NCBI GenBank assembly: GCA_964355175.1 | Contig: CAYHBZ010000001.1 | Span: forward strand, 304,523 to 368,522 | DNA from: an uncultured Gammaproteobacteria bacterium | GTDB lineage: Bacteria; Patescibacteriota; Patescibacteriia; Magasanikbacterales; GWA2-37-8 | Direction of reading: 5' to 3' | Length of the DNA stretch: 64,000 nucleotides | Shown: piece after piece, positions 1 through 33,635 of the stretch | Layout of the letters: each line of letters opens with the position of its first letter | Position numbering within the stretch: position 1 is the first letter of the stretch | Translations under genes and position numbers: made by a program | The notes under the pieces: generated by a model | Databases searched by the model: none | What the model saw: only the letters and a program-made list of their open reading frames with translations | Told to the model about the DNA's origin: nothing

Positions 1-2708
1 TAGCCGGCATTGCGTTTAGCTCCGATACAAGTCTCACTTTTGGGAATACACATACCATTTTGTTGTCCAACCACACAACATTGATCGTTGACTGCATCCG
101 CACAAGTATTATTATTTTTAGTGCAATCAAATACAGAAAACTGAACAGTGTTACTTTTTTTGGAACCAATAGTGGTAACAAATAATGGACCAGAAGCCAC
201 ACCGCCTCCTGGCTTGGTAGTAATATGATGATTGGTATCAAGTGTGACGAAAGATGTTTCCAAACTTGAAAGCATACTAGAACTAGCCCCAATTTTCCAA
301 AAATAAGCCACATCTATATTTTCTAAATTATCACCATAAATATTCAAGACATTACCGACAAAAGGCACCGGCCCAGAAGGTGGATTAATAGCACAAATAC
401 CCGGTTTGGCATCACCACTCACAGTACGAATGGAAAAATTATTGTTGATTGGACTAAAAGTAACATTGTCGGCTAATTTTATTCTTACCGAAAAATCAAA
501 ATTTAAATCAATCGTGCTTGGTATTTTTACCATTACTTGCCCATCATTCCAAATAGAATTAAATTTTTTACATTCTTGAGGAAAATCAACACTACCAACA
601 ATATTTGGATTGGCGGCGTTGCCATCTTTATTTAAAATTACCGACCCACCCTGCGCTCCAAAATTCTTACCATAAATGACCAAATAATCTCCGCGAGCGG
701 TACTGGTAGCACTCAGAGCAGTAATGATAGGGCCGTTTGGATTAGAACCAGAAATAGAAAACTTTATTCCATTACTATACAGACCACCTTTTTTGGCCTG
801 CACGGTAAAACCACCATTACCCAGACCAACTGGCACAAAACTGCTAATTAAATTTTCATCCCAACTGCCAATTTTTACCTTAGATCCCTGAAAAAATATA
901 CCGTCATTAACTACATTGAGATCAGCCAATTTACCAAACCCTTTACCGGACACTGAAAATGGTTGGCCTTCAAAACCTGCCGCAGGATCTATGGTACAAA
1001 TCCCGGGATGAGAAATATTAGTAAGAGTAAAGACACTGCTGGCTCCCCAGCTATCATTGGTAACATCAGTGCCATTTGTACCACCAACCTCTGTCACTAC
1101 TTTCAGCGGACCGGTGGCAGCAATCGAGGCTGGCACAGAAACTACAATTTGATTATCGGTCCAATATTTAAAATTCGCGCCACAATTTACCGGCATGGCT
1201 TCTACCCATTTGCCACTCGTACTGCTAGCAAAATAAACATGGCCTGGATTTTTTCCAAAATATTTACCAAAAACAGATACATAATCCCCTACCGCTCCAT
1301 TATCCAAAGAAAAATAATCAACTCTTACTTTATTTACACAAACGCCGGTAGCCGCTCCAGCCACCTTTTCACAATAACCACTGGAACAATCGGAATTTTG
1401 TGTACAAATGTCGCCGGCACAAGATCCACACTCACCGCCACAATCGCCAGCCGGACTTGGGAAAGAAAATTTTTCTCCTACACTTTCGTCAAGCTTGTTA
1501 TCATAACAGTGGGTTGGTTTTAAATTTATTGAAAAATTAGTTTTAATTTGATTATTTCCCCAATCTATCCCCAATAAACCAATATTATGAGAACCTAGAG
1601 CTGCTTTGAGGGTGTTCCAATTTACAGTTAATGTGCCACTGGTATCACAATTATTCTGTGGCTGGACAGAAGTAATAAAATTATTATCGGCAATCAAATT
1701 TAATGTTTGCAAACCAACATCATCCTTGTAATCAACTATTACTCCGATAGTATCACCCTGACTAAAACCGTCTCCTGGCTGAGGAAATTTAACGGTAATT
1801 TGCGGAGGCGTAGAGTCGATTTTATCACCTGAAGTAAAACTAACATCACTGCAATTATAGGCACCACTGCAAGAAAGACTTTGCAAACCAGACTTTGTTT
1901 TAATATTGGCAGATTTTGCTATTACAATCTTATAAGGGGTCTTATACTCAAAACAATAATAATTGTTATTATTCAAACACTTAGTGGGAGGAGAAAAATA
2001 TACTTCACGATTATTGCCGCCCTGATAATTCCAAGTACCGTCGACCACACTGTTGGTAAAAGTATTAATTACCTGTATGTTATCCGGATGGCCACCAGCA
2101 CCAAGGTGATTTAAACTGTCGATGTCAACATCTTTATTAAAAACCATTATAGGAGAGTAGTTGGCCACACACACATTGCCGCCAGACGGTTTTTTATTAA
2201 TATGAAAAGATTCACCCGCACTACAGTCGACTCCCTGTGGGCAATCTCCACAGGATGGACATTTACCCCCGCAATTCGCGCCACCTTTGTCTATCTGCGC
2301 TTTACATTCTGGGTTGACTCCACCATTGAATCCGGTGGCTTCTACTAATTTAGTCATCACAAAAGCCACTATAGAATAAGCGGACAAAATAATCGCCAAG
2401 CCAATAGTAGCATTAATTAAGATTTTTTTGGCAGTACCAATCTGCTCTTCATTGCCGCCGGAAGTCATCCATTCATATCCGGCATATAACATCAGCACCA
2501 CCGCCAAAATTCCGAGCAACCCCAAAGCTGATTTAATAATATTGGCCACGATGATACGAATATCCACATGACCAAGACCGGTGGCATCCAAAGGCTGTAG
2601 ACCCAAATCAAGCGGAGCGGCCAGAGCTGAACTAGCAAAAAATAGACCAACGGAAAAAAATATTATACCAGCCGATATTAATAATAATTTTTTAAAATTA
2701 TTTTTCAT
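1..2708 (-). CDS. Large secreted/surface protein, 3' end cut by the window edge and absent from the ORF track. It has an N-terminal T4SS-pilin-like (VirB2/TrbC-like) two-helix module, Cys-rich linkers and repeated IPT/TIG-like modules.
   Basis: I translated the minus strand by hand from the ATG at 2708 and found no stop down to position 1. The N-terminus reads MKNNFKKLLLISAGIIFFSVGLFF...DIRIIVANIIKSALGLLGILAVVLMLYAGYEWMTSGGNEEQIGTAKKILINATIGLAIILSAYSIVAFVM. Cys-rich linkers follow (CGGKCPSCGDCPQGVDC, GDCGGECGSCAGDICTQNSDCSSGYC). Repeated GDYVSVFGKYFG / GDYLVIYGKNFG modules are typical of IPT/TIG domains. The start lies 2 nt after the stop of the upstream paralog. Confidence 0.7.
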   Translation of the reverse strand, partial: MKNNFKKLLLISAGIIFFSVGLFFASSALAAPLDLGLQPLDATGLGHVDIRIIVANIIKSALGLLGILAVVLMLYAGYEWMTSGGNEEQIGTAKKILINATIGLAIILSAYSIVAFVMTKLVEATGFNGGVNPECKAQIDKGGANCGGKCPSCGDCPQGVDCSAGESFHINKKPSGGNVCVANYSPIMVFNKDVDIDSLNHLGAGGHPDNIQVINTFTNSVVDGTWNYQGGNNREVYFSPPTKCLNNNNYYCFEYKTPYKIVIAKSANIKTKSGLQSLSCSGAYNCSDVSFTSGDKIDSTPPQITVKFPQPGDGFSQGDTIGVIVDYKDDVGLQTLNLIADNNFITSVQPQNNCDTSGTLTVNWNTLKAALGSHNIGLLGIDWGNNQIKTNFSINLKPTHCYDNKLDESVGEKFSFPSPAGDCGGECGSCAGDICTQNSDCSSGYCEKVAGAATGVCVNKVRVDYFSLDNGAVGDYVSVFGKYFGKNPGHVYFASSTSGKWVEAMPVNCGANFKYWTDNQIVVSVPASIAATGPLKVVTEVGGTNGTDVTNDSWGASSVFTLTNISHPGICTIDPAAGFEGQPFSVSGKGFGKLADLNVVNDGIFFQGSKVKIGSWDENLISSFVPVGLGNGGFTVQAKKGGLYSNGIKFSISGSNPNGPIITALSATSTARGDYLVIYGKNFGAQGGSVILNKDGNAANPNIVGSVDFPQECKKFNSIWNDGQVMVKIPSTIDLNFDFSVRIKLADNVTFSPINNNFSIRTVSGDAKPGICAINPPSGPVPFVGNVLNIYGDNLENIDVAYFWKIGASSSMLSSLETSFVTLDTNHHITTKPGGGVASGPLFVTTIGSKKSNTVQFSVFDCTKNNNTCADAVNDQCCVVGQQNGMCIPKSETCIGAKRNAG

Positions 2709-2709
2709 C

Positions 2710-4788
2710 TTAGTTAATCAGTTTTTTATTAGTCTTTATCCATTCTACACAAGTATCTTTGGTAAAATTATTACCAGCAGAAACCAATCCATCACAACAA
2801 AAATCTTTTCCGCCACTAACTGTTTCACAGCAGGTGTTACCGGGTTTGGTAGGATCACAAGTTGGAGAAATGCGACTTGGTGTAGTGGCCTGAGTTTTAT
2901 CCGGTCCAAGTCCAGGATAAAAACAATTGAAATGCGCGTCCTCTACCGTGGAACTAACCACCGGCATATAAAATTGATTATCCAAAAAGGTCGGATGTTC
3001 CATAGTTACTGTCTGATAATCCAAATTCAGATAAGGTTTGTGATAAGCTGGGATCCATGGCTTTTCCGGAGTAGACACAGTAGGAAATTCTATCAAATCA
3101 ATTGAACTAAGAGATTCAACTCTCATTCGTTTACTAAACACCATCTCCCATTTTTGATTTTTAACTACATAATCTGAATCTGGCGCCGGAGTGATATTCA
3201 CAAGATAAGGAGCGGTAATATCTATTTCGCTATTAATTTTGAAACTCCAATAATTATTATCTGGAACCAACCAGTTATTAAAAACCGGCAAAGTAGTGGT
3301 GGCGGTCTGAGCGGATCCATTTTTATTACCATCAAGAGCGTTACTAGCCAGATCCGATACGCCAGAAAAAGGCTGAGATTGGAATGTGCCGCCCAAAGTT
3401 TTAGCAGCTTTCAAAAGCAAAGTATATTCGTCTTCATTTAGACAAAAAATATCTCCACCGCAGGCATTCACTCCACATTTGAGCGACGGTGTAAATTCTA
3501 GAGTCCGGTAATTATTTACCAAATTAAAACTGCCGGCCGGTAAAATATTTTTTAAATTTTTTAAATATATATACTGATCCGATCCTAGCTTAGGAGCTTT
3601 ATAATATTTAGCTGTGCCAAAAGTAGATGTCGTAAAATCGCCCTGCAAACCGGTAGGATCAACTGCTTCGGAAAAAGTAATTTGAACTACTGAATTTCTA
3701 GCCTCCCCTTTTGGATTATCGGTAATGCTTTTTGGAAACACATCTACTACGGTTGGCGGAGTCAGATCGAGAGTGTTATTGCACACGAATTGCCAAGAAT
3801 AATAATCGTTGCCAAGATTTTGTTTGTTGAAAATAGATGGATAATTATTTTCAGAATTATTTTCTGCGATCTTTTTACCCAGATTGACAGTATACCCTAC
3901 CGATTCGGTTTCACTGCCCAAATAACCACCGTCAGATAAGGAAGAGTTGGTAATTGGTTTGAGAACCAAAGTAAAATGACCTTGGACATTATTGTAACTA
4001 CTTATTGATGACAAAACTACCAAACCAGTAATTGGCTGATTGCTGTCTGTACGCTTGACATTGATATAATCATCCATTAATTTCGATCCTGTGCCAGAAG
4101 GAGTCGTAGTCGCGTGATCACAATCGGTATTCCAATTAAATGTGGCTTTACCAGTGTTAATACAATCACCAAATGTATTGCTACCGTTGGTATCTACTAC
4201 AAAACTTGGCAGATAAACCGGCTTGGCAAAAGTAATCACAATTTTTGTATTACGCGGCACATCTTTTTGATCACGAGCTGGATAGTGATCTTTGACAACT
4301 TTACCCAAAGCACCACTGCCGGCAAAATTATAATTTTGGCTCGGGGCGGTATTGGTAGTACCTTCCGTACCAAAACCGTCTTTTACTCCAAGCATCTTCA
4401 TAATAAACGCCACGATCGAATAAGCGGATAAAATAATCACCAAACCAATCACGGCATTGCGAATAATACTTTTGGCCTGACCGATCTGATCTTCATTACC
4501 ACCGGCGGTCATCCAAAGATAGCCCGCATATAGTATGAGACATACCAAAACAATCCCGACTAAACCCAAAGCCGCGCGAATAATGTTGGCAATAATAATG
4601 CGAATATCAAAATTCGCCAAACCAAGCGGTTCTTGGATTATTTGCAAACCTTCATTGACGGTGTTCTGAGCTAAAGCGGTATTAAAAGACAAAAAAACCG
4701 CCACTAAAATTGCCCCCAATATAGTGACGGTCTTTAATTTATTGTATTTATTTTTTACGATCCATTGAAGCATGGGACAATGGAACAA
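2710..4788 (-). CDS. Secreted/surface protein with an N-terminal T4SS-pilin-like module, SbsA-type Ig-like domains and a Cys-rich C-terminus. It is a paralog of the 1..2708 protein over the N-terminal module.
   Basis: The 692-aa ORF carries the motif DIRIIIANIIRAALGLVGIVLVCLILYAGYLWMTAGGNEDQIGQAKSIIRNAVIGLVIILSAYSIVAFIM, nearly identical to the neighbouring gene. TPPTVVDVFP...ITFSEAVDP and DITAPYLVNITP segments resemble bacterial Ig-like (SbsA/Big_5) domains. The C-terminal part is Cys-rich (CCETVSGGKDFCCDG). Confidence 0.75.
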   Translation of the reverse strand: MFHCPMLQWIVKNKYNKLKTVTILGAILVAVFLSFNTALAQNTVNEGLQIIQEPLGLANFDIRIIIANIIRAALGLVGIVLVCLILYAGYLWMTAGGNEDQIGQAKSIIRNAVIGLVIILSAYSIVAFIMKMLGVKDGFGTEGTTNTAPSQNYNFAGSGALGKVVKDHYPARDQKDVPRNTKIVITFAKPVYLPSFVVDTNGSNTFGDCINTGKATFNWNTDCDHATTTPSGTGSKLMDDYINVKRTDSNQPITGLVVLSSISSYNNVQGHFTLVLKPITNSSLSDGGYLGSETESVGYTVNLGKKIAENNSENNYPSIFNKQNLGNDYYSWQFVCNNTLDLTPPTVVDVFPKSITDNPKGEARNSVVQITFSEAVDPTGLQGDFTTSTFGTAKYYKAPKLGSDQYIYLKNLKNILPAGSFNLVNNYRTLEFTPSLKCGVNACGGDIFCLNEDEYTLLLKAAKTLGGTFQSQPFSGVSDLASNALDGNKNGSAQTATTTLPVFNNWLVPDNNYWSFKINSEIDITAPYLVNITPAPDSDYVVKNQKWEMVFSKRMRVESLSSIDLIEFPTVSTPEKPWIPAYHKPYLNLDYQTVTMEHPTFLDNQFYMPVVSSTVEDAHFNCFYPGLGPDKTQATTPSRISPTCDPTKPGNTCCETVSGGKDFCCDGLVSAGNNFTKDTCVEWIKTNKKLIN

Positions 4789-4797
4789 AATTATAAA

Positions 4798-5040
4798 TTA
4801 TCTCTTCTTGGTTTCTTCTGGCAAACGACCAATTTTTTTAAGGTATTCCATTTTTCCAGCTACCTTAAGACTGTGCAAAGCACTTTTGCGACGCATGTTA
4901 CGACTCTTATCTTTGTCGTGATAGCGGATTTTCTTTACCTGTAAAATCTTACCTGACTGCTGCCAACGTTTTTTGACGCGGCGCATGTAGGATTCAAAGG
5001 ATTCGTTTTTTCTTCTTTTTATTTCTGACACAATATTCAC
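4798..5040 (-). CDS. rpsU: 30S ribosomal protein S21 with a basic C-terminal extension
   Basis: The segment KNESFESYMRRVKKRWQQSGKILQVKKIRYHDKDKSRNMRRKSA follows the S21 pattern (KNESLEDALRRFKR...REFYEKPS..RK). Confidence 0.6.
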   Translation of the reverse strand: MNIVSEIKRRKNESFESYMRRVKKRWQQSGKILQVKKIRYHDKDKSRNMRRKSALHSLKVAGKMEYLKKIGRLPEETKKR

Positions 5041-5102
5041 CTCCGTTTAAAATTAAAATTTACGGCAGATAGCATAAAAATGCTGTCTTCATTATACCTT
5101 AT

Positions 5103-6500
5103 TTATCGCTTATCGTCAAATCGACCCAACTTTCTTTTTAAGACTGTAACTAATTTTTTTTGATCCACGATTTCTTGAATACCGGATTCCATGTCGCGGA
5201 TGATGGCGGTGCCATCTTGCACTTCTTTTTGACCAATAATTACGGTGAAAGGAGCTTTCAAACTATCAGCCAACTCCATCTGACTCTTGAGCGAGGTTTT
5301 GAAAAAATTAAAAGCAATTTTTACTCCAGCACCGCGTAATTGATTTATTAATTTCAAAGTTACGCGACGAGCCTCTTCTCCCAGCTGAGCCACATAGGCA
5401 TCAGTTGGTACTTTTGGCATTTCACGATTATTTTTTTCATTGTATTGTTTGAGCGCCAAAACCGCGCGCTCGAGACCAATCGCCATACCAGCCGCCGGGG
5501 TTGGACGTCCGCCCATTTCTTCTACCAGCAGATCGTAGCGACCACCGCCACCTAAAGCGCTTTGCGATCCTTCTAAATCATCGGCTGGATAAATTTCAAA
5601 TACGGTATTAGTATAATAATTTAAACCGCGGACCAAAGTGTGATCCAATTGATATGGAATTTCAAGCACATCCAAATATTCCAATACTTTCATGAAATGA
5701 TTTTTGCTTTCCGCTCCGAGCCAATTAATAATTTGTGGCGCTTCTTCTTTTACAGTCTGACAGCCTACTTCTTTACAATCGAGCAGACGCATTGGATTTT
5801 TGGTAATACGCTGACGACACTCTTCGCAAAGATAAGAACGCTTACTGCGATAATAATTCACCAATTCATTTTTATAATTAGCGCGCTCAGCCGAAGTACC
5901 AATACTATTTATTTTTATTTCTACCGGCAAACCTAGATCTTTGAAAAAATCATAAGCTACCAAAATCAATTCGGCATCCATGGCTGGATCATTGGACCCA
6001 AAAGTTTCAAAACCAAACTGGTGAAACTGACGATAGCGACCGGCTTGCGGACGGTCATGACGGAACATTGGCCCCCAGTACCACAGCTTGGTAGGCTGAG
6101 GCATATTCCAGAACCCATGCATAATATAAGCACGCACTACGGAGGCAGTCATTTCTGGACGCATGGCTACTTTGGTGGTATCTTTATCTTCAAAAACATA
6201 CATCTCTTTGTCTACAACATCGGTACCTTTACCAATACCACGTACAAACACGCCTACTTCTTCCAAAATTGGGGTTTCAATACGAGCGAATTGAAAATGT
6301 TCGGCCAAATCAGAAATAGATTTATACATCGGCTTCCAATATTTTTCATCCTTTGGCAAAATATCGTGCATACCGCGCAACAACCCATAAGTACGTTTTC
6401 CTTTTTCAACAACGCCTTCTTTTTCTTTAACAGGCTTAGCGGCTTTCACAATCTTTTTCACTTCTGGTTTTTTCATTTTCATTTTTTTATCTTTAGACAT
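5103..6500 (-). CDS. hisS: Histidyl-tRNA synthetase
   Basis: Class II HisRS motifs are present: RGMHDILP, ETPILE, DKEMYVFEDK, RPEMTASVVRAY, WYWGPMFRHDRPQAGRYRQFHQFGFE, and GGGGRYD...AAGMAIGLER. The ORF-track start at 6530 is a TTG that overlaps the lepB stop. The ATG at 6500 (MSKDKK) is the more likely start. Confidence 0.9.
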   Translation of the reverse strand: MSKDKKMKMKKPEVKKIVKAAKPVKEKEGVVEKGKRTYGLLRGMHDILPKDEKYWKPMYKSISDLAEHFQFARIETPILEEVGVFVRGIGKGTDVVDKEMYVFEDKDTTKVAMRPEMTASVVRAYIMHGFWNMPQPTKLWYWGPMFRHDRPQAGRYRQFHQFGFETFGSNDPAMDAELILVAYDFFKDLGLPVEIKINSIGTSAERANYKNELVNYYRSKRSYLCEECRQRITKNPMRLLDCKEVGCQTVKEEAPQIINWLGAESKNHFMKVLEYLDVLEIPYQLDHTLVRGLNYYTNTVFEIYPADDLEGSQSALGGGGRYDLLVEEMGGRPTPAAGMAIGLERAVLALKQYNEKNNREMPKVPTDAYVAQLGEEARRVTLKLINQLRGAGVKIAFNFFKTSLKSQMELADSLKAPFTVIIGQKEVQDGTAIIRDMESGIQEIVDQKKLVTVLKRKLGRFDDKR

Positions 6501-6510
6501 AAAAGAAGAA

Positions 6511-7116
6511 TTAATATTTTGGAGCTTCAAAAACTTGAATGCGATTTATAGGCCAACCGCGTAGCCAGGTACGACCAACAATGAGACTGGCGTCCACTTT
6601 TCCGAACCGGCGAGAATCAAAACTATTTTCTCGATTATCCCCCATCATGAAATATTGATCTTTGGAAAGTGACATATTTATTTCACCTTCAGTGACAACA
6701 CTTTTTGGGATATAATTTTCTTCAAGCAATAAACCTTCGGGGTGTTCGTTGTTGTAAATAGTTACTTTATTTTCCGAAATTTTTACGCGTTCACCCGGCA
6801 AACCAATCACGCGCTTGAGAAAATATTCTTGGTGATTGTTTGGATATTTAAATACCACGACATCGCCGCGTTTGGGCGTATGCAGACGGTAACTCAACTC
6901 ATCAATAATGAGGTACTCGTGATCATAAAAATTTGGCTCCATGGAAGCGCCTTTGACGTAAAATGGTTTGAAAAGATAATAGCGTACCAGCGCAATCGTA
7001 ATACCGGCCAGCAGAGCAACTTTGATAAATTCCAAAAGTGCTAATCCGGCTCCAGCTAGATAACGACGCAAATAACGCCACAAATTTGAATTAAATTGAT
7101 TTTTTTCGTCAGTCAT
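6511..7116 (-). CDS. lepB: Signal peptidase I
   Basis: An N-terminal TM segment is followed by GASMEPNF, RGDVVVFKYP, KRVIGLPGE and GDNRENSFDSRRFG, which match the S26 peptidase boxes. Confidence 0.85.
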   Translation of the reverse strand: MTDEKNQFNSNLWRYLRRYLAGAGLALLEFIKVALLAGITIALVRYYLFKPFYVKGASMEPNFYDHEYLIIDELSYRLHTPKRGDVVVFKYPNNHQEYFLKRVIGLPGERVKISENKVTIYNNEHPEGLLLEENYIPKSVVTEGEINMSLSKDQYFMMGDNRENSFDSRRFGKVDASLIVGRTWLRGWPINRIQVFEAPKY

Positions 7117-7196: not shown

Positions 7197-7270
7197 TGGG
7201 CGATTGAGGAATCGAACCTCAGACCTCGTCATTATCAGTGACGCGCTCTAACCATCTGAGCTAATCGCCC
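7197..7270 (-). tRNA. tRNA-Ile (anticodon GAU)
   Basis: The reverse complement is GGGCGATTAGCTCAGATGGTTAGAGCGCGTCACTGATAATGACGAGGTCTGAGGTTCGATTCCTCAATCGCCCA. It folds as a cloverleaf with anticodon loop CTGATAA. CCA is not encoded. Confidence 0.9.
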
Positions 7271-7320
7271 TTTTAATTAAAAAGACTATATCATTTCTCC
7301 CACGAAAAATCAAGACTTCG

Positions 7321-7394
7321 TGGGCGACAGAGGATTTGAACCTCTGACCTTTACAATGTCAATGTAACGCTCTAACCAACTGAGCTAGTCGCCC
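7321..7394 (-). tRNA. tRNA-Val (anticodon GAC)
   Basis: The reverse complement is GGGCGACTAGCTCAGTTGGTTAGAGCGTTACATTGACATTGTAAAGGTCAGAGGTTCAAATCCTCTGTCGCCCA. The anticodon loop is TTGACAT. Confidence 0.9.
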
Positions 7395-7592: not shown

Positions 7593-8561
7593 TTAAAAAA
7601 TTTTTTTCAAATAATTCAATACATAGTCCCTTACGCCATCTTCCAATTCCCAGAATTTATCATGGTAACCCGCATCCCGCAGTAAATTAATTTCTGCTTT
7701 GGTATAATATTGATATTTATCCTTCAAATCTTCGGGCATTTCTATAAATTTAATCTTGGTCTCTTTTTCCAAAGCAGAAAAAATTGCTTTTGCCAAATCA
7801 GAGAAAGATCTGCTTTTCCCAGTACCAACATTAAAGATTCCATTGACGTTTGGATTCTTTAAAAAATATAAAACAACTTTTACCACATCCTTAACATATA
7901 TAAAATCCCTTAGCTGGCCGCCGTTAGAATATTCTTTATTGTAAGATTTAAACAATTTTATTTCATTAGTCTGAACTATTTGTTTGAAACCGTTAAGTAC
8001 TACCGAAGCCATTCTGCCTTTGTGATATTCATAAGGTCCATAAACGTTAAAAAATTTTAGACCCACCCACTGTGGTGGCCGCACTTTTTGCGCTAAAACC
8101 CAAAGATCAAATAAGTGTTTTGATTGGCCATACAAATTCAACGGCTCCAACTCAAAAATATTGTCATCAAAACCACGACTGCCGTCTCCGTAAGTGGCTG
8201 CAGAAGAAGCATATATAAATTGAATGTCTTTCTTCACACAATAATTAAATAGATGCTTACTATATTCATAGTTGGTTTGTAAAATAAAATCCTTATCATC
8301 TTCAGTAGTATCTGAACATGCTCCCATATGTATAATAGCTTTGATGTCAAAAAAATTATCTGATTTTATAGCTAACAAAAATTCATCCCTATCAAAATAT
8401 TTATCATATTTTAAGATTCCCAAATTCTTTCTCTTTGCATCATCAAGCAGATAGTCAACTATTATAATATCGTTGATCAACCCGGCATCATTTAGCGTCT
8501 TGATTATATTGGCACCAATAAATCCAGCCCCTCCTGTGATTATTAATTTGCTATTTGACAT
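7593..8561 (-). CDS. hldD: ADP-L-glycero-D-manno-heptose 6-epimerase (NAD-dependent epimerase family)
   Basis: ITGGAGFIGANIIKTLNDAG, HMGACSDTTE, YASSAATYGDG, YGQSKHLFD, FFNVYGPYEYHKGRMASVV and NVGTGKSRSF follow the HldD/RfaD sequence pattern closely. Confidence 0.8.
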   Translation of the reverse strand: MSNSKLIITGGAGFIGANIIKTLNDAGLINDIIIVDYLLDDAKRKNLGILKYDKYFDRDEFLLAIKSDNFFDIKAIIHMGACSDTTEDDKDFILQTNYEYSKHLFNYCVKKDIQFIYASSAATYGDGSRGFDDNIFELEPLNLYGQSKHLFDLWVLAQKVRPPQWVGLKFFNVYGPYEYHKGRMASVVLNGFKQIVQTNEIKLFKSYNKEYSNGGQLRDFIYVKDVVKVVLYFLKNPNVNGIFNVGTGKSRSFSDLAKAIFSALEKETKIKFIEMPEDLKDKYQYYTKAEINLLRDAGYHDKFWELEDGVRDYVLNYLKKIF

Positions 8562-8643: not shown

Positions 8644-9951
8644 TTAACTGTCCATTTTTCTACTTTCTTCTAAACGATAAGAATCACTTTCTTCGTGATG
8701 AGTACTTATTTCCAAAATTTCTGATTCATCCAAACCGCCAAAACGATGCTTCACGCCTTGAAAAATCCTCACGAAACTTCCGGGCAACATTTCACTAACA
8801 CTATCACCTACCTCCATACGCACTTTGCCTTTTAGAACTAGAAACATTTCATCTTTATTTTTGTGATAATGCAAACTACATTGAAAACCTTTATTCAAGC
8901 CCAAAATCTTACTACAATAAGAGTCGTTATTTTCCAACCATTTTTCATAGCCCCAGACTTTTTTTACAATAAAAACATCATCGATATGCCTTTGAGTGTT
9001 GGTAAGGACGGAAAGCAGTTCTGATTTATTTATTACCGACGTACCAGATTTTTGGACAACAATTTCACCGGCGCAATTTGACAGATAAGCAGCGGTCTCC
9101 AGGTCCGCCCCAGATAAAATTGAAGCGAACGCGACGGCCGCGATTGTGTCTCCAGCACCCGTAACATCGTATACCTTTACAGCTCTAGCCTTAATTTGTT
9201 TTAAATTCCCTTTTTTATCTGCAAGCAAAATTCCTTCACCACCTAGGGTTAAAAACACATCAGCGTTAAATATTTTTACCAAATTAATCGCTGCGTTGGT
9301 ATATGTATTCTCTCCAGTCATTTCTTGCGCTTCTTTCAAATTGGGACTAAGATAATCAACTCCTTTAAATAACAGATGTCGGCCTGGTTTAATATCAGCG
9401 AAGACTAACTTCTTGTTATTCCTACATAACTCCAACAGACGCTCAACTAAAATAGGAGCAAACAAACCCTTGGCATAATCCGATATCATTACACCATCAA
9501 CATTTTCAATTACTTTTGATATTTTATTTATAAACTCTTCAACTTCTGTTTCAGGTATATCATTGGTGTCTTCAATATCTACTCTCAGCAGTTGCTGACC
9601 TGTAGCCACAAAACGATGTTTAACCGTTGTAGGATATTTGGAAGAACTTATTATGCCTGAATAATCAATACCAACTTCTGACAACATTTCCAAAATTTTT
9701 TTTCCAAAAAAATCGGATCCAACGATACCAGCTAAAAAGACCTGCACCCCCAAAGCTGAAAAATTATTGGCCACATTAGCCCCACCGCCCAGTCGATAAT
9801 AGTCGTCTTTATTCTTTCTAAGAACCGAAACTGGCGCCTCCGGTGAAATTCTTTGAACTTCTCCATTCGTATATACATCCAACATGATATCACCTATAAC
9901 TAAAATTTTTTTATCCTTAAATTTCTCTAATATTTGGGCTATACTTAGCAT
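8644..9951 (-). CDS. Fusion of a PfkB-type sugar kinase (HldE domain-I-like heptose-7-phosphate kinase) with a C-terminal cupin of the phosphomannose-isomerase type
   Basis: The N-terminal part has ILVIGDIMLDVY..G.VQRISPEAPV and GGGANVANN...DVTGAGDT, the ribokinase/HldE kinase motifs. The C-terminal roughly 110 aa has VWGYEKW...SLHYHKNKDEMFLVLKG...HRF..., a two-His cupin core. The usual HldE cytidylyltransferase domain is absent. Confidence 0.7.
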   Translation of the reverse strand: MLSIAQILEKFKDKKILVIGDIMLDVYTNGEVQRISPEAPVSVLRKNKDDYYRLGGGANVANNFSALGVQVFLAGIVGSDFFGKKILEMLSEVGIDYSGIISSSKYPTTVKHRFVATGQQLLRVDIEDTNDIPETEVEEFINKISKVIENVDGVMISDYAKGLFAPILVERLLELCRNNKKLVFADIKPGRHLLFKGVDYLSPNLKEAQEMTGENTYTNAAINLVKIFNADVFLTLGGEGILLADKKGNLKQIKARAVKVYDVTGAGDTIAAVAFASILSGADLETAAYLSNCAGEIVVQKSGTSVINKSELLSVLTNTQRHIDDVFIVKKVWGYEKWLENNDSYCSKILGLNKGFQCSLHYHKNKDEMFLVLKGKVRMEVGDSVSEMLPGSFVRIFQGVKHRFGGLDESEILEISTHHEESDSYRLEESRKMDS

Positions 9952-10183: not shown

Positions 10184-11734
<1,551 letters not shown>

Positions 11735-11836
11735 TAAAAAAAGAGAATGATAAGCTCGGAAAAATTCCGAACTATTATTTGTTTTGTTGTTGAATAGACA
11801 GATTTTTAAATATATAAATTTTACTTTATATACTTA

Positions 11837-12919: not shown

Positions 12920-15900
12920 TTATTTTACATTGAAATCAAAGCTATTCTCGGCAAGCACCACATTCTTGCTATCGAGTACTTTCACTTTTGCAGTGTAGGT
13001 ACCGGTAGCTAATTTCTTGCTCAAAGAGCTGGTAGCATTGAATTTAACGGCTTGACCTTTGGATAGCGTGCGGGTTCCGTCAACCTCACCCACTACTTTG
13101 CCATTGGCATCTACTACCTGGCGAACGATTTTTACTTTTACTGGTTTACCAGTTTCGTTCTTATAGGAGTAGGTGTACTTCACAGCACTGCCTGGTTTAT
13201 AATCAACTTTTAATCCGGTGATCACCACTTTGGAATCTGGATTATTGGTAGAAATTGAAGGTGGAGGCAGAGGTTTCTTTACAGTTACATCAAAGCTGTT
13301 TTCACCCAAAAGCTTATTTTTGGAATCCATTACTTTAACTTTGATAGTGTAGTTGCCGTCAGCCAATTTACTGCTTAGTAAATTGCTAGCGCTTGACTTA
13401 AAGGTCTTGCCTTTAGCAATCGAAGCGCTGCTATTTACCTGAGCCACTACTTTACCATTAGCATCGAGCACCTGGCGTGCTACTTTAATCTTTAAAGTAG
13501 CACTATTTTCATTCTTAAAGGAATAAGTGTAAGCAACTGAGCTGTTTGGAACATATTGCAATTTCTTTACTGGTAATATCACCAACTTGGAACCAGGATT
13601 GGAAAGAGTAAAGATTGTTACATTGGAAGAATTAGAGGATCCTACATTGGAAGATTCAGGTAAAGTGGTTAGAGCAGAAGCTTCTTTTAAACCTACAGTT
13701 ACTTGATAAATGGTGCTTAAAGCTCCAGTAGCTGAACGGAATCTGATGTTTAGTGTCTTTTGACCATCACCGGCAGACAACGCAAATACCTTGGTAGTGG
13801 CGTATAGTTCCCACACAGCGCCTACGAAAGCAGAGTCTTCGGAGATTATCATATCTTTAGCGTTGAAAGCTGAAAGATTGATAGTGATATTTCTAGAAGA
13901 TACTGAGGAAGGATTACCTGGTAAGCTGACGGAAACTTTCGAAGGAGCCGAACCAGCACCACTGGTAACACCACCACCGCCGCCGCTTGATCCACTACTA
14001 ACACTTACAGTGTTGCCAGTAAAGGTAGCGGAGTCAGATCCGGTATCAGTAGAATCTTTACTATCGGTAAAGGCAAGAGAAACAGTACCGTTTCCAGAGA
14101 CCTGGAACAATCCATCATTATTTGTTTTAGCACTAGCTACAGAGAAAATATTACCACTGCTTTGGAAGATACCGGTACTAGCACCAGTTTCAGTCAAAGT
14201 GATTGTTTCAGAGTCACTATAAGTATCGGAAGTGACAGTTACAGTCATAGTATCAGCAGAAGTAGTCAGGTTGGCGTCAGTATCTACTACTTTCAAATAC
14301 ACAGAACTAGCGGCAGTAGCATAGGTACTAGCGGCAGTACCAGCACCGTCTACGAAGTCAACCGAGGCAAGTGGGTGAACAATAGCGCCAGTTTCAGTGA
14401 CTGTACCAGTATTAGTAAAGGTGCCAGGAGCGTATAGAGTGTAGCTAGAACCGATAGTCAAAGAACCGGCATTGGTAATACTATCAGTAGAAGTGGTGTT
14501 ACCGGCCAAAGTATAGGTGCCGGCACCAAGAACTAAGCCCCAATATCTTTCAGCTGCTGGGGTTACAGAACCAGTACCAGTGTATCTTACAGTAGAGCTG
14601 GCCGAAGTAAATGTACCACTGTTAACAAAAGCGGTAGTACTGCTAGGGAAAGTCAAGGTAAAACTAGAACCATTTAAAGTCTTGCCGGAATTAATTGTAA
14701 GCACATTACTGACAGTGGTCGAACCAGACAAGGTGCCAGATGTGCCGTTGTTAACAACTAAATTCCAGTAAGTGGTGGAGGCGATGGTGGAGGTGGCACC
14801 GGAGAAGACTACAGTGGAGGTGCTGGCAGTGAAGGTACCGTTGCTTAATAATGGAGTGCCTGTACCGGTGAAGGTTAGGGTCTTGCCATTGGCGTCTAAA
14901 GTTTTTCCAGAGTTAATGGTTAAGACATTGCTGACGGTGGTGTAGCCACCTAATGTACCGGCAGTGCCGTTATCTACAGTCAAATTGTAATAGGTGGTGG
15001 AGGCAATAGTAGCAGTAGCACCGGAATAGACGACAATGGAGGTGCTGGCAGTGAAGGTACCGTTATTAACTAATGGGATACCGGTACCACTTAGAGTAAG
15101 AGTATAACTGCTTGCATCTAAAACCTTGCTGGCATTAACAGTTAGGACATTGCTGACTGTAGTGGAACCAGTTAAGAGGGCAGTCCCGGCGTTGTTAATA
15201 ACCAAATTAAAGTAAGTTGTGGAGGCAACGTCGGGTCCTGTAACACTATTTGAATAGGTAAAGGTAGAACTACCGGCGTTAAATGTGCCGTTATTAATAA
15301 ACGTAGAAGCGTTGTTACCTGTAACTTCTAAAGTACTTGTACCAGCATTAAAAACCGCGCCGCTGTTAATTCTGATACCAGTATTCCCTCCTGCTTGCAA
15401 TCCACCGTATACGGTTGAGCTAGCTGAATCAACCGTCACAGTATAAAAGGTACCGGAGGCCATATTTACACCATTACCAGTATATCTAATAAGTAAATTA
15501 CTAAAATTTGAAGCACCCGTATTATTAACAAACGGAGTTCCTGTGGCAGCTAAAGTAAGATTTTCAATACCTGGCTCCAAGATCGAAGGGGTACCCACAG
15601 TAAATAAATTATTTACTGTAGTACTACCTGTAATAGTGTTGGAAGTGGCACCATTCAAAGTCAAGTTGTAGTAGGTGGTAGAAGCAACGTTGGCGGTGGC
15701 ACCGGAGAAGACTACGGTAGAGGTACTGGCGGTGAAGGTACCGTTGCGTAAAAACGGAGTGCTGGTACCGGTCAATGCCAGAGTATAGCCGTTGGCATCC
15801 AAAGATTTAGTGGAGCTAACAGTAAGTACATTGGTGGTGGTCACATTACCGGCTAAAGTACCGGCAGTGCTGATTAATAGGTTGTAGTAGGAAGCAGAGG

Positions 15901-17338
15901 TGATTGGTTGGGTACTACCACCACCGTAGACCACAGTCGAAGTGCTGGCAGTAAAGGTACCACTTTGTGTAAATGGTGTGATACCTAACAAACTGATCGT
16001 GTATCCATTGGCGTCCAATACAGCGCCACTGCTAATTACAAGATTGTTCATTTCTACTATACCCGCCAATACGGCGGCAGTTGAATCGATTTGTAGACCG
16101 TAGTAGGTAAGGTTAGCGGCAACATTAGTAGCGCCGACACCGGAATATCTGACTACACCATTACTGGTAAGAGTACCAGTTTTAACAAGCGGAGTACCAG
16201 TGCCAGATAAATTCAAAGTGAAGCTAGAAGTATCGAGTGTCTTGCTGGCATTAATAGTCAATACACTACTGACAGTAGTAGAGCCAGACAGTGTACCTGA
16301 GGTGCCATTATCAACAGTCAAATTATAATAGGTGGTGGAGGCGATGGTGGCAGTAGCACCGGAGTATTTAACGGTAGAACCGCTTGGAACAAAAGTACCA
16401 TTTCGCACAAATGGAGTGCTCGTACCAGGCAAATTTATTGTACTTCCTGAATGGCCTGTTAAACTACCTGAGCTACCTATAGTAAGAATATTAGTAGTAG
16501 TAACATTAGAAGTTCCTGCTGTAGACAAAGTTACAGATCCATTTATAGTTAAATTATAAGGCACAAATCTACCTGAAGTTATACCACTATCACCAATTAA
16601 CTTTCCAGTACCAGTCATTGTTACAGTACCTGAAGTTTGAATCAAAGTACCTGGTGATAATATACTTCCTCCAACATTTAGATTAAAGGTAGATAAATCA
16701 AAAACTCTCAGTGAATTAACAGTAAGATCGTTGGTAGTTGTAACACTACTACCAAGCGTGGTATCATCGGCAATAGTAAGGTTGTAAAAATTTATTGATC
16801 CAGGGCCGCTAATAGTTTTAGTAAGACCGGACATCGTGAGAGTACCAACTGTTTGGCTAAGAGTAGTAGTGACATTAACATTACCAGACACATTAATTGT
16901 TCCAGTGGCGTTAAATGCAGTTCCGCCTAATCTCAGATCAACAACAGCCAAAGTACCGCCTACCTGAAAAGTACCGGCGTCTTGTGCAAAACTACCAGTG
17001 CCAGTAAGGGTTACGCCTGAATTAATATTAATAGTTCCGGTATATGTAGAATCCATTGATATGCCGGCAGTAGTTGTACTGACATCAAAAACAGCATTGG
17101 TAGTAGTTCTAGCTCCATTAAAAAACAAATCTTTACCGGTCAGAGTAGTACACGCTGCACCAACTCCACCGATAGTATCTTCCCAATTAGTAAGAGTTGA
17201 AGCCAGCTGAGAACTGCTCGCAGTCCAAGTACAAAAAGCCGCACTTGCCTGCTGACCAAAAAACATTGAGGAGAGCAGAAGTGCTGACCCCACTAAGAGT
17301 AGTTTAGACCTACTCAGAAATGACACATTCGTATTCAT
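12920..17338 (-). CDS. Giant secreted repeat protein (1472 aa), probably a beta-helix-type adhesin, with two C-terminal Ig-like modules
   Basis: The protein has a signal-like N-terminus (LLLVGSALLLSSMFFGQQASA). About 70-75-aa T/S/G/N-rich units recur many times (…TTVSNVLTINSGKTLDANGKTLTFTGTGTPL..NGTFTASTSTVV(Y/F)SGAT.TIASTTYYNLTV.NGT…). Two C-terminal modules of about 110 aa are also repeated (…YTYS(F/Y)KNE…KVKV(M/L)DSKN…ENSFD). Confidence 0.85.
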   Translation of the reverse strand: MNTNVSFLSRSKLLLVGSALLLSSMFFGQQASAAFCTWTASSSQLASTLTNWEDTIGGVGAACTTLTGKDLFFNGARTTTNAVFDVSTTTAGISMDSTYTGTININSGVTLTGTGSFAQDAGTFQVGGTLAVVDLRLGGTAFNATGTINVSGNVNVTTTLSQTVGTLTMSGLTKTISGPGSINFYNLTIADDTTLGSSVTTTNDLTVNSLRVFDLSTFNLNVGGSILSPGTLIQTSGTVTMTGTGKLIGDSGITSGRFVPYNLTINGSVTLSTAGTSNVTTTNILTIGSSGSLTGHSGSTINLPGTSTPFVRNGTFVPSGSTVKYSGATATIASTTYYNLTVDNGTSGTLSGSTTVSSVLTINASKTLDTSSFTLNLSGTGTPLVKTGTLTSNGVVRYSGVGATNVAANLTYYGLQIDSTAAVLAGIVEMNNLVISSGAVLDANGYTISLLGITPFTQSGTFTASTSTVVYGGGSTQPITSASYYNLLISTAGTLAGNVTTTNVLTVSSTKSLDANGYTLALTGTSTPFLRNGTFTASTSTVVFSGATANVASTTYYNLTLNGATSNTITGSTTVNNLFTVGTPSILEPGIENLTLAATGTPFVNNTGASNFSNLLIRYTGNGVNMASGTFYTVTVDSASSTVYGGLQAGGNTGIRINSGAVFNAGTSTLEVTGNNASTFINNGTFNAGSSTFTYSNSVTGPDVASTTYFNLVINNAGTALLTGSTTVSNVLTVNASKVLDASSYTLTLSGTGIPLVNNGTFTASTSIVVYSGATATIASTTYYNLTVDNGTAGTLGGYTTVSNVLTINSGKTLDANGKTLTFTGTGTPLLSNGTFTASTSTVVFSGATSTIASTTYWNLVVNNGTSGTLSGSTTVSNVLTINSGKTLNGSSFTLTFPSSTTAFVNSGTFTSASSTVRYTGTGSVTPAAERYWGLVLGAGTYTLAGNTTSTDSITNAGSLTIGSSYTLYAPGTFTNTGTVTETGAIVHPLASVDFVDGAGTAASTYATAASSVYLKVVDTDANLTTSADTMTVTVTSDTYSDSETITLTETGASTGIFQSSGNIFSVASAKTNNDGLFQVSGNGTVSLAFTDSKDSTDTGSDSATFTGNTVSVSSGSSGGGGGVTSGAGSAPSKVSVSLPGNPSSVSSRNITINLSAFNAKDMIISEDSAFVGAVWELYATTKVFALSAGDGQKTLNIRFRSATGALSTIYQVTVGLKEASALTTLPESSNVGSSNSSNVTIFTLSNPGSKLVILPVKKLQYVPNSSVAYTYSFKNENSATLKIKVARQVLDANGKVVAQVNSSASIAKGKTFKSSASNLLSSKLADGNYTIKVKVMDSKNKLLGENSFDVTVKKPLPPPSISTNNPDSKVVITGLKVDYKPGSAVKYTYSYKNETGKPVKVKIVRQVVDANGKVVGEVDGTRTLSKGQAVKFNATSSLSKKLATGTYTAKVKVLDSKNVVLAENSFDFNVK
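14450..16600 (-). repeat. Degenerate in-frame tandem repeats (unit about 220 nt) within the 1472-aa gene
   Basis: Recurring nucleotide blocks are visible, for example ggtggtggaggc(g/a)at(g/a)gt...gcaccggag(t/a)a...gtgaaggtaccgtt near 14770, 14990, 15670 and 16330. Confidence 0.6.
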
Positions 17339-28221: not shown

Positions 28222-28641
28222 CTATTGTGCACAAGAACGAGCCAATAAATAATCGTTGGCCGTCGGCTCGGCGCCATTTTTAATTTCATTGGCGCGCTTC
28301 TCGCCCAATTTGGCATAGAAACACGCTTCCATAGCCGGAGTAATTTGAGTCGGCAACTTCGCCGGATCAATACCCACTTTCTCCAGCGCTTGTTCTTGGG
28401 CCGGAGATAACATCGGATTCTTGTCTACTGCCGCATTGTTTGTATTTTTTGTCGTAGAGGCTGGTTGTCCATATGAATTTTGAAGCAAAGGTTTGATACC
28501 ATATGGATCGGCCACATACAGATAAATACCCGCAATGATTAGGAGAAAGAAAATGATTCCCAGAATCATAAAAAATATTTGCAGAAATTTTTTCATATAA
28601 TTTTGATTTAAATATATTACCAGATTTATTGTATCACCCAT
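28222..28641 (-). CDS. Small membrane-anchored protein of unknown function
   Basis: The ORF has one clear TM segment (FLQIFFMILGIIFFLLIIAGIYLYV). The likely start is the internal MKKF. Confidence 0.5.
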   Translation of the reverse strand: MGDTINLVIYLNQNYMKKFLQIFFMILGIIFFLLIIAGIYLYVADPYGIKPLLQNSYGQPASTTKNTNNAAVDKNPMLSPAQEQALEKVGIDPAKLPTQITPAMEACFYAKLGEKRANEIKNGAEPTANDYLLARSCAQ

Positions 28642-31766: not shown

Positions 31767-33635
31767 TTATTTAGTTTGATTTTCAAATTCTTGTTTGGCG
31801 CGTTCGATCTCAAGCAACTGCTGCGGGTTGGTGGTCACCAGCTGATCTTCGGTATACGAAGCCACGATCTTGATAGCGGCATGTTTGAGACCGGCAAAAA
31901 ATATTCCTTCACCCGGAGCACTCTCCAACAATAAATATTTTTCACTATCCGTAAGCATGAAAACTTTTTGAATGTTGTCCACGGCGGCCGGAGATTGGCG
32001 GAGCAACAATTGCAAAGCCGAATTGGTCACAATCGCCTGTCCGTATTGGGAATGCAAGAAATCATTTACATCCTGCGTAATAGTCGTGACACCCAAATAA
32101 TATTTACGACAGCGTTTCACCAAAGCAAAAATAAATCTGGCGGAATCTTCGTGTTGCATCAGCCACCAGGCTTCATCAATTACGAGCACGCGCTTGCGAC
32201 GCTCGGAGCGCACCGTGTTCCAAATATAATTGATAATCGCGTAAATAGCGAGCGGACGCAATTCATCTTCCAAATCACGCACACTATACACCACCAACTG
32301 ATTTTTCATTTCCACATTGGTTGGCGAATTGAATAGTCCACTAAAAGTACCTTCGGTATATTTTTTCAATTTTAATACCAATTCGTTCGAGCCTTCCATA
32401 CCTTCGAGCACTTCCTGCAAATCTTGCATGATTGGCGCTTCGACAGTATTGAGATCCACACCGGATACGATATCTTTTTTGGCGTAAGTTTCGATGAGCG
32501 CTCTATCGATTACCGAATCCTGCTCAGTAGTAATACCACCAAGCATAATACGGAGTAATCCTTTCACAGTAATAACCGCGCTACGAATAATATCGTCGAC
32601 AGACAAATCCTGCTCCATTGGGCGAGGCAGATCAAATGGATTTACTTTACTCTCACTGCTCAAAGAAATATTAATATAAGTACCACCGACCGCGTCAGAG
32701 AGATGTTTATATTCCATTTCCGGATCAATCACAATCACTTCCAGGCCCATCATGAGAGAGCGCAAAATTTCCAATTTAATGGCATAGCTTTTACCGGCAC
32801 CGGAAGTAGCAAATACTACCATATTGGCATTCTGCATCGAAAAACGATCAAACAAAATCAAACTATTGTTGTGACGATTGATTCCGTACAAGATACCATT
32901 ATCGGAAGTAAGCTCGGCAGAAATAAATGGAAAAGACGCGGCAATCGGCGATGAATTCATGTTGTAGGAAATCATCAATTCATCATTGCACAGCGGCAAA
33001 GTAGAATTAAAACCTTGCTCAGCTTGATACAATACTTTGCGACTCATGATCAATTTACTGCCAAAAATACTTTCGATATCTTCGGATAACTGATCCAATT
33101 TTTCTTTATTTTTGGTATAAATAGTGACATAAAAAGCAAACTGAAAAAAGTGCTCTGTCCCCTGGGTTAGATTGTCGCGCAAGCCTTCAATATCACGCAA
33201 AGCGGTCTCACGAATTGGATCACGCGGCGCGCCCTTTTCGGCATCGGCGCTAATCTGCGCTTCGAGCGCACCTACTTTATTTTTTAATTGTTTCAAAATA
33301 ATTTCGGCTTTAATCGGATAAAAGAACATTGAAATATCCATATTCACCGACAAACCAATCACGGGAGAGCTCCAACCCACGGAAATATAACGCGGATAAT
33401 TCATGATGAAAAGCGTACGACAAAAAGTGGTGCCAAGCTGGATAAAATTGGACTCAATATTAAAAGCCGCCGGCGCGATAATATCACGCAACGACACCAC
33501 GCCCTCACGATAGACCTGCTCTTCTTGCAGAGTAATGAGTTCGGCAGCGGTAGCTTTTTCTAACTTGCTTTTATCTTTACTACCCAAACTCGCTTTATCG
33601 TTTTGTTTGGCAATGAATTGTGGTTTAAAGGCCAT
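31767..33635 (-). CDS. virB4: VirB4/TraC/PrgJ-family T4SS ATPase, C-terminal 622-aa part
   Basis: DIIAPAAFNIESNFIQLG..FCRTLFIMNYPRYISVGW is the VirB4 middle domain. VVFATSGAGKSYAIKLE is Walker A and RVLVIDEAWWLM is Walker B. TQDVNDF is also present. Confidence 0.85.
   Translation of the reverse strand: MAFKPQFIAKQNDKASLGSKDKSKLEKATAAELITLQEEQVYREGVVSLRDIIAPAAFNIESNFIQLGTTFCRTLFIMNYPRYISVGWSSPVIGLSVNMDISMFFYPIKAEIILKQLKNKVGALEAQISADAEKGAPRDPIRETALRDIEGLRDNLTQGTEHFFQFAFYVTIYTKNKEKLDQLSEDIESIFGSKLIMSRKVLYQAEQGFNSTLPLCNDELMISYNMNSSPIAASFPFISAELTSDNGILYGINRHNNSLILFDRFSMQNANMVVFATSGAGKSYAIKLEILRSLMMGLEVIVIDPEMEYKHLSDAVGGTYINISLSSESKVNPFDLPRPMEQDLSVDDIIRSAVITVKGLLRIMLGGITTEQDSVIDRALIETYAKKDIVSGVDLNTVEAPIMQDLQEVLEGMEGSNELVLKLKKYTEGTFSGLFNSPTNVEMKNQLVVYSVRDLEDELRPLAIYAIINYIWNTVRSERRKRVLVIDEAWWLMQHEDSARFIFALVKRCRKYYLGVTTITQDVNDFLHSQYGQAIVTNSALQLLLRQSPAAVDNIQKVFMLTDSEKYLLLESAPGEGIFFAGLKHAAIKIVASYTEDQLVTTNPQQLLEIERAKQEFENQTK

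Follow-up and report, generated by a model that had tools for sequence, protein, structure and literature searches.

The 64,000-nucleotide (nt) stretch of DNA analysed here, called the window below (positions 304,523 to 368,522 of contig CAYHBZ010000001.1, assembly GCA_964355175.1), comes from a genome deposited as an uncultured Gammaproteobacteria bacterium and placed by GTDB in the Patescibacteriota (Magasanikbacterales, GWA2-37-8). At one end of it lie two adjacent minus-strand genes, A and B, whose products join a module related to the VirB2-like pilins of type IV secretion systems (T4SS) to long, predicted extracellular regions. Gene A (2710..4773, minus strand) encodes a modular pilin of 687 amino acids (aa). 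The mechanical open reading frame (ORF) is 2710..4788, opening at TTG 4788; the true start is almost certainly the ATG at 4773, giving MLQWIVK..., as judged from the consensus of 120 orthologues and from a 100%-identical 687-aa database protein (P0121). Gene B starts at ATG 2708, one base past the TAA stop of gene A, and is open to base 3, so that the window holds only its 5' part (1..2708, minus strand; the first 902 codons) and its C-terminus lies beyond the edge. In a 99.0%-identical metagenomic contig (ENA ERZ4201064 NODE_2, 953,736 bp), in which the first 902 residues are identical to those of the window, gene B encodes 3,620 aa.

Protein A is laid out as a signal peptide (residues 1-35, ending A-L-A↓Q), a stub (36-55), a pilin hairpin (56-127; helices 57-89 and 94-127 with the loop WMTAGGNEDQ), a disordered linker (about 128-151), a β-sandwich ectodomain (152-640) and a Cys-rich tail (641-687). 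Protein B has a signal peptide (1-30, ending A-L-A↓A) and a pilin hairpin (about 46-128), followed by Cys-rich linkers, Big_7 and TIG repeats and, past the window edge, by Big_5 and Laminin_G_3 domains. The pilin module of A is encoded at 4380..4634 (minus strand; about residues 47-131, PLGLANFDIR ... MKMLGVKDG) and that of B at 2325..2579 (minus strand; about residues 44-128, ATGLGHVDIR ... TKLVEATG). Database records label proteins of both types only as "pilin", "Ig-like domain-containing protein" or "hypothetical".

The initial annotation had described both genes as beginning with a signal-like segment and an almost identical block, laid out as two hydrophobic helices around a common motif, and had assigned this block to the VirB2/TrbC-type pilins of T4SS; the description is borne out, and so is the assignment to T4SS pilins. 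The common two-helix block covers 85 aa with 66% identity between A and B, the motif reading WMTAGGNEDQIGQAK in A and WMTSGGNEEQIGTAK in B, and the hydropathy profiles of both proteins contain exactly three hydrophobic segments, namely the signal peptide and the two helices, with none further on. A hidden Markov model (HMM) of diverse modules matches only A and B among the ORFs of the window (E = 2e-39 and 6.5e-36, the next ORF following at E = 0.24), and the shared block is therefore real and beyond chance. Both proteins also match the Pfam model T4SS_pilin (PF18895) above its gathering score of 26.6 bits (A, 34.2 bits; B, 30.4 bits; the module of A by itself, 40.4 bits); all 32 related modules that were sampled and scanned singly likewise hit this model. 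In NCBIfam the sole match, below threshold, is to the "Mbov_0395 pilin-like conjugal transfer protein" of a Mycoplasma integrative and conjugative element. These sequence comparisons firmly support homology of the module to the VirB2-like pilins of Patescibacteria.

A more distant relationship to the canonical VirB2/TrbC pilins is probable. The TrbC model (PF04956) is matched by 16/32 of the sampled modules at E <= 0.1 (best 3.4e-6), and A itself reaches 14.6 bits (E = 0.039), under the gathering score of 27.9. Comparison by hhalign of the module profile with a VirB2/TrbC alignment, its target profile being built from six plasmid genes with VirB2 or TrbC/VirB2 annotations, gave an alignment in register over both helices (Prob 73%, E = 3e-5, 61 columns), against Prob <= 1.5% for controls consisting of the reversed target and 20 column-shuffled targets. 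The A-x-A↓Q end of the leader is likewise common to family A and VirB2. AlphaFold models give a long antiparallel helical hairpin for the module. A type IV pilin identity was rejected, as Pfam and NCBIfam return neither an N_methyl nor another type IV pilin match and a class III leader is lacking; the leaders of A and B read as Sec-type, ending in A-x-A.

The position of the predicted signal-peptidase site bears on whether the block is part of the mature protein at all. In the 120-sequence alignment of family A, conservation of residues A35 and Q36 (A-L-A↓Q) is 90% or more, and the orthologues of B have equivalent [AVS]-x-A sites. In either case the predicted site lies 15-20 residues ahead of the pilin block, which should thus be kept in the mature protein, and the idea that the block is merely a cleaved leader was rejected, because the conserved site sits ahead of the block and not behind it. 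A related explanation holds that there is a long cleaved leader after all, or that the ectodomain is cut off after export, yielding a free pilin and a free secreted protein. C-terminal processing or cyclisation is known for TrbC/VirB2 pilins, the linker at about 128-151 is disordered and accessible in the model, and a gene for signal peptidase I is conserved in the neighbourhood of the pair, all of which would suit such a cut. However, the conserved A-x-A↓Q precedes the block, the linker is poorly conserved (column identity 0.49) and has no conserved cleavage motif, and lepB is an ordinary housekeeping signal peptidase gene with no sign of a dedicated TraF-like copy; we regard this explanation as highly improbable.

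The predicted topology places the N-terminus outside, with helix 1 running inward, the loop in the cytoplasm and helix 2 running outward. On this hairpin topology the C-terminal domains would be extracellular, which is consistent with their immunoglobulin-like (Ig-like), Cys-rich nature. A later hydrophobic segment is absent in 77/79 complete A and 23/26 complete B proteins, a C-terminal one being present in only 1/26 complete B proteins, and the sortase motif LPxTG is absent from the last 60 residues of all 79 complete A and 26 complete B proteins. The pilin hairpin is accordingly predicted to be the sole hydrophobic anchor in nearly all complete copies of A and B.

Beyond the hairpin, Pfam identifies Big_5 in A, and TIG and Big_7 followed further on by Big_5 and the lectin-like Laminin_G_3 in B, which also has Cys-rich repeats and a Cys content of 3-4%. 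The two proteins had been said to diverge completely after the block; this was overstated, as Big_5-type Ig-like domains occur in both. The estimate of 600-800 aa for the extracellular domains fails for B, a protein of 3,620 aa, which had been taken to be about four times too small since its gene runs past the window edge. The AlphaFold2 model of A (pLDDT 85, pTM 0.76) shows a linker that is disordered at 132-151 and then confident β-sandwich domains. In structure searches this ectodomain resembles only β-sandwiches of the Ig-like/S-layer SbsC, LdtMt2 BIg, CopC and macroglobulin MG types, with no enzyme fold among the matches; the best Foldseek match is the surface-layer (S-layer) protein SbsC (4uic, E = 2.9e-4), 2ra1 also matches, and the TM-score is about 0.13.

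These matches raise the possibility that A and B form an S-layer or envelope scaffold, A being structural, like an S-layer stalk, and B its outer partner, with an architectural role in place of host adhesion. Besides SbsC as the best match and the Big_5 domains of A, the well-conserved ectodomain of A with its many invariant residues, the constitutive housekeeping context described below and the reported prevalence of S-layers in Patescibacteria (bioRxiv 10.1101/2024.05.28.596244) would fit such a role. On the other hand, the structural matches are weak and of the kind expected of generic Ig-like chains, neither A nor B has an S-layer homology (SLH) domain or other known S-layer anchoring domain, and the range of B lengths, from about 1,400 to more than 4,400 aa, together with its lectin-like Laminin_G_3 domain, fits ligand binding better. 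We consider a purely architectural role improbable.

A protein search with full-length A returned 589 matches, the best 120 of which are all 650-745 aa long, combine PF18895 with PF13205 and are 42-100% identical to A over their full length. A query with the 143-aa N-terminus had returned only short proteins and so suggested that such fusions are rare, a view overturned by the full-length search: the best matches of the short query, P0001 and P0002, are fragments of A-type proteins. At least 310 stretches in one-genome-per-species GTDB contigs encode a relative of A, and the informatively named records among them are almost all Magasanikbacteria. An Uhrbacteria genome also has A followed by a giant B, in a different upstream context, and A- or B-like fusions occur as well in Falkowbacteria, Komeilibacteria and "Parcubacteria" records. 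In a different lineage, a further locus (JGI 3300076763, Ga0633490_0000078) encodes two other fusions of PF18895 to Big_5, of 845 aa and 1,523 aa and about 6 kb apart, between which lie a gene for a 1,391-aa protein and several small ORFs without a recorded domain; two proteins with TSP3_bac repeats are encoded just downstream of the second fusion, and the rpsU/hisS context is missing. The fused architecture is thus not confined to the conserved A-B block.

Gene order around the pair was examined in a sample of 84 loci, with the testable loci as denominators. A B-type gene with a pilin module lies directly downstream of A in all 74 testable loci, and upstream of A are found rpsU (81/83 loci), hisS (69/70) and lepB (55/56), so that the pair sits in a housekeeping block lepB-hisS-rpsU-A-B. 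Complete B-type downstream genes encode about 1,400-3,460 aa from stop to stop, and many others run past the end of the fetched locus. In the window the corresponding neighbours, all on the minus strand, are rpsU for ribosomal protein S21 (4798..5040, directly upstream of A; PF01165 in the orthologue), hisS (5103-6530) and the signal peptidase I gene lepB (6511-7116). The hisS-rpsU spacer contains a promoter-like site (TTGACG-17-TATAAT, 5091..5119, minus strand; 11/12 matches) that is a candidate for driving rpsU-A-B, although it is a consensus match only and total counts of such sites are not above those of shuffles. Neither the rpsU-A nor the A-B junction contains a terminator-like site. Together with the 1-nt junction between A and B, this suggests that rpsU, A and B may be co-transcribed, with coupled expression.

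The initial annotation had placed cognate VirB3, VirB4 and VirB6 genes about 27 kb from the pair. A T4SS core indeed lies at about that distance from A, consisting of a PrgI/VirB3-like gene (34332-34784, minus strand) and a split VirB4 (33639-34325 and 31767-33635, minus strand), whose two ORFs, 3 nt apart, encode a 228-aa N-terminal part with a weak TraC_F_IV match and a 622-aa P-loop part (P-loop_TraG, AAA_10). No model confirms a VirB6 in the window; the only candidate, of the "extended VirB6" kind, is a polytopic protein of 1,398 aa (37993-42189, minus strand) with no Pfam match; hydrophobic segments are clustered near its N-terminus, its large C-terminal part is hydrophilic, and its gene heads the row that ends in PrgI and VirB4. 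Two other ORFs of this row (357 and 336 aa) and a 379-aa ORF likewise lack a Pfam match. A ComF-like gene and a RecQ helicase gene are found near the core, and this monoderm-type cluster resembles the ABY1-class arrangement described earlier, including the comF neighbour (PMC12102498). The module HMM finds no further pilin module or free pilin gene in the window, including beside the T4SS genes. A 139-aa ORF next to a tRNA-Ser gene (28222-28641, minus strand), with one hydrophobic segment and E = 0.24 in the module HMM search, is probably unrelated.

Synteny offers no support for calling these T4SS genes cognate to the pair, as a VirB4 or PrgI homologue lies within 10 kb of A-B in 0/84 loci. 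This separation favours another explanation, under which the hairpin has been co-opted as a static two-helix membrane anchor in a wall-poor monoderm, without ever being extracted or polymerised; by themselves, and independently of any T4SS, A and B would form a surface fibre, an adhesin or an envelope scaffold. The housekeeping block with its probable co-transcription with rpsU, the role of the hairpin as the only anchor in proteins without a sortase signal, and the size of B, which makes extraction from the membrane look difficult, all point in the same direction. We take this explanation seriously while judging it somewhat doubtful, for reasons that lie in the conservation of the module, considered below.

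The wider distribution of the module bears on both explanations. An exhaustive HMM search found 76,902 cluster representatives with a pilin module at E <= 1e-3. The best 150 of these are dominated by multi-module proteins, so that the share of short against fused proteins derived from them is biased. The representatives include "poly-pilin" proteins with 2-17 tandem PF18895-like hairpin modules, as in the group of P0323 (820 aa), P0330 (1775 aa), P0331 (232 aa) and P0457 (1369 aa); P0323 and P0331 have no signal peptides between modules. Such proteins are topologically consistent, since every hairpin returns to the outside. In one representative, by reading of its sequence, two modules are followed by PKD-like repeats, and the search also found a B-type giant of 4,432 aa. 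This abundance, the many architectures and the tandem copies would suit a general-purpose membrane module and so the static anchor. In one other Magasanikbacteria genome, free small pilins are found beside the fusions: a 628-kb contig (ENA ERZ25039527 contig_18216) carries both an A-B pair (290,278-312,963) and, about 150 kb away, ten arrayed genes for small or medium pilins of 122-328 aa (133,646-154,134), which shows that fused and free pilins coexist. Neither of these two loci has a VirB4 within 10 kb. The array adjoins a gene for a sugar-binding protein and a glycosyltransferase gene. The free small pilins end a median of 12 residues past helix 2, whereas about 555 further residues follow in A and about 3,490 in B.

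The pattern of conservation provides the main argument against a purely passive hairpin. Median identity to orthologues is 67% for the pilin module and 42% for the ectodomain of A, and 64% and 33%, respectively, for B. In the alignment of family A, the loop reaches a column identity of 0.93 and the helices 0.74-0.79, compared with 0.64 in the ectodomain and 0.49 in the linker. The pilin module is thus the most conserved part of both proteins. The modules of A and B are 61% identical to one another and 47-48% identical to the free small pilins, with which they have the core motif YAGxLWMTAGGNE...AK...IGL in common. Hydrophobicity would suffice for a static anchor, yet it is the module that is conserved most, including a near-invariant polar loop that also occurs in the free small pilins. 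Such conservation is not expected of a generic hydrophobic anchor and suggests that the hairpin has retained a specific contact, be it to other pilins or to the pilin-handling machinery.

These observations lead us to prefer a layered reading in which A and B are modular VirB2-type pilins, with a carrier hairpin that displays Ig-like ectodomains and that is mounted on a pilus. Taken as a whole, with pilus mounting included, we give this reading an even chance; its core, display at the cell surface, is more secure than the whole. The Sec signal peptide would be removed by signal peptidase I at the conserved A-x-A↓Q, and the two hydrophobic helices would insert as a hairpin with the N-terminus out, the WMTAGGNE(D/E)Q loop in the cytoplasm and the end of helix 2 out. 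The disulfide-rich chain of Ig-like/β-sandwich domains, with a length of about 535 aa for A and about 3,500 aa for B, would be exported and held by the hairpin alone. A and B would probably act as a pair, since they are likely made together from genes 1 nt apart in the rpsU-A-B unit, A serving as the conserved adaptor and B, which is longer and varies more, as a fibre or adhesin at the epibiont surface. The hairpin may still engage a pilin-handling or pilin-packing interface, as suggested by the same conserved motifs as in the free small pilins of the lineage. Finally, a few copies of A and B might be mounted on a filament of small pilins, its tip being the most plausible place, in the manner of modular type IV pilins; the conservation pattern, the coexistence with small pilins and the precedent of those pilins (PMC8179133) all point that way. 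Taken singly, incorporation of A and B into a T4SS-type pilus is a tentative proposal that we consider doubtful. It is plausible, as the initial annotation suggested, that A and B are adhesins which a T4SS-related structure displays or anchors.

Several observations weigh against the preferred reading, its pilus step above all. The T4SS core of the window is 27 kb from the pair, and the sampled loci repeat this lack of linkage. In the literature surveyed, no pilus of a PF18895 protein has been visualised in any patescibacterium, and pulling a subunit with 3,500 extracellular residues from the membrane onto a pilus would appear to be without precedent for VirB2-type pili. For an adhesin, the ectodomain of A shows unusually high conservation, and the S-layer protein that it matches best in structure would suit a structural role in the envelope. 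As for the module itself, fold comparison of the hairpin matches thousands of unrelated hairpins and is non-discriminating, because any helical hairpin matches; a search of its profile against PDB sequences found no solved pilin, and only spurious matches of "Pizza" repeat proteins to the short loop motif. Cleavage of the signal peptide was judged by rule and by conservation.

Among known systems, the closest are the VirB2-like pilins of Patescibacteria, described in Southlakia epibionticum and others (Wang et al. 2023, PMC10633639; Quinonero-Coronel et al. 2025, PMC12102498), which have the same signal peptide, two hydrophobic helices and YAGxLWMTAGGNE loop; they come from the same phylum, and a monoderm-type T4SS (PrgI, VirB4) is present in the window. 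The presence of VirB2-like pilins and pilin arrays in Patescibacteria is known, and has been held remarkable for monoderms (PMC10633639, PMC12102498, PMC12857230). The described proteins are about 100-190 aa long, are often encoded in arrays and in many genomes lie near virB4, whereas A and B have long extensions and are encoded by a fixed gene pair within a housekeeping block, with no virB4 nearby. With canonical VirB2/TrbC pilins (PF04956; Agrobacterium VirB2) they have in common the A-x-A↓Q leader end and a two-helix hairpin of similar length; they differ in the distant level of similarity, the monoderm host, the lack of a virB operon and the large C-terminal extension, which rules out head-to-tail cyclisation of the VirB2/TrbC kind.

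A parallel in design is offered by the modular type IV pilins, such as PilB and PilC of S. sanguinis, CofB of enterotoxigenic Escherichia coli and TcpB of V. cholerae, which likewise combine an N-terminal carrier, a short flexible linker and bulky modules. Their grafted modules, modelled at the pilus tip (Raynaud et al. 2021, PMC8179133), are adhesive or lectin/β-rich, and these pilins are widespread in many architectures, bacteria of the Candidate Phyla Radiation (CPR) included (PMC8179133). They belong nonetheless to an unrelated pilin class, with a class III signal peptide, a single α1 helix and type IV pilus machinery, unlike A and B, which have a class I-type signal peptide, a VirB2-type hairpin and T4SS ancestry. 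PrgB-type adhesins of Gram-positive conjugation systems and the VirB5 tip adhesin of Gram-negative T4SS resemble A and B in a postulated role in contact of a T4SS with its target cell. Neither, however, is related to A and B in sequence or fold. PrgB is anchored by sortase through LPxTG, with its gene in the T4SS operon, and VirB5 does not belong to the pilins; A and B lack LPxTG and are unlinked to T4SS genes. Finally, the S-layer proteins SbsC and SbsA of Geobacillus are similar chains of Big_5-type Ig-like β-sandwich domains, from which A and B differ in their low structural scores and in having a pilin hairpin in place of anchoring by SLH domains or through a secondary cell wall polymer.

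Other parts of the window add to the description of this genome region. A complete 16S rRNA gene (10186-11741, minus strand; Rfam RF00177, 1390 bits) shares its strand with the A-B pair and lies about 5.4 kb upstream of it; there is no 23S gene in the window, and genes for a pfkB-cupin kinase (8644-9951) and an epimerase (7593-8561) part the 16S gene from tRNA-Val and tRNA-Ile (7197-7394), giving the appearance of an unlinked or interrupted rRNA operon. Three further minus-strand genes encode giant proteins with an N-terminal signal-like segment and no pilin hairpin, namely a protein of 1,472 aa (12920-17338), one of 2,649 aa without a Pfam match (43756-51705) and one of 2,283 aa with PKD, CARDB and fn3 domains (55996-62847). 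Counting these beside A and B, a large share of the 64 kb encodes very large, probably secreted proteins.

A large part of bacterial diversity belongs to the Patescibacteria (CPR), whose way of life is attachment to host cells. The T4SS and VirB2-like pilins are essential in the one genetically tractable patescibacterial species (PMC10633639), and a phylum-wide survey detected no T4SS adhesins (PMC12102498). VirB2-type modules fused to large ectodomains, the conserved A-B pair and the poly-pilins were not found described in the literature, in a search that was thin on subscription journals. The use of a pilin as carrier for very large extracellular cargo has been described so far only for type IV pilins. 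In the most far-reaching interpretation, A and B constitute the host-contact organelle of the patescibacterial T4SS, as giant VirB2-type pilins that nucleate or cap a filament of small pilins. We consider this unlikely; if true, a fibre of β-domains of 3,000-4,400 residues would project from the pilus tip and tether the epibiont to its host, A and B would represent the first conjugative-type pilins acting as adhesin carriers, paralleling the modular type IV pilins, and the poly-pilins with their 2-17 modules could be pre-assembled filament segments.

If the hairpin is a mere anchor, it would represent a lineage-wide means of anchoring surface proteins in monoderm ultra-small bacteria that needs neither a sortase signal nor a lipobox and that was not met with in the literature searched. 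More generally, the VirB2-type pilin fold may lend itself to carrying or anchoring extracellular cargo of very large size. The A-B pair provides concrete, testable candidates for the contact of Patescibacteria with their hosts, and may supply them with surface adhesins.

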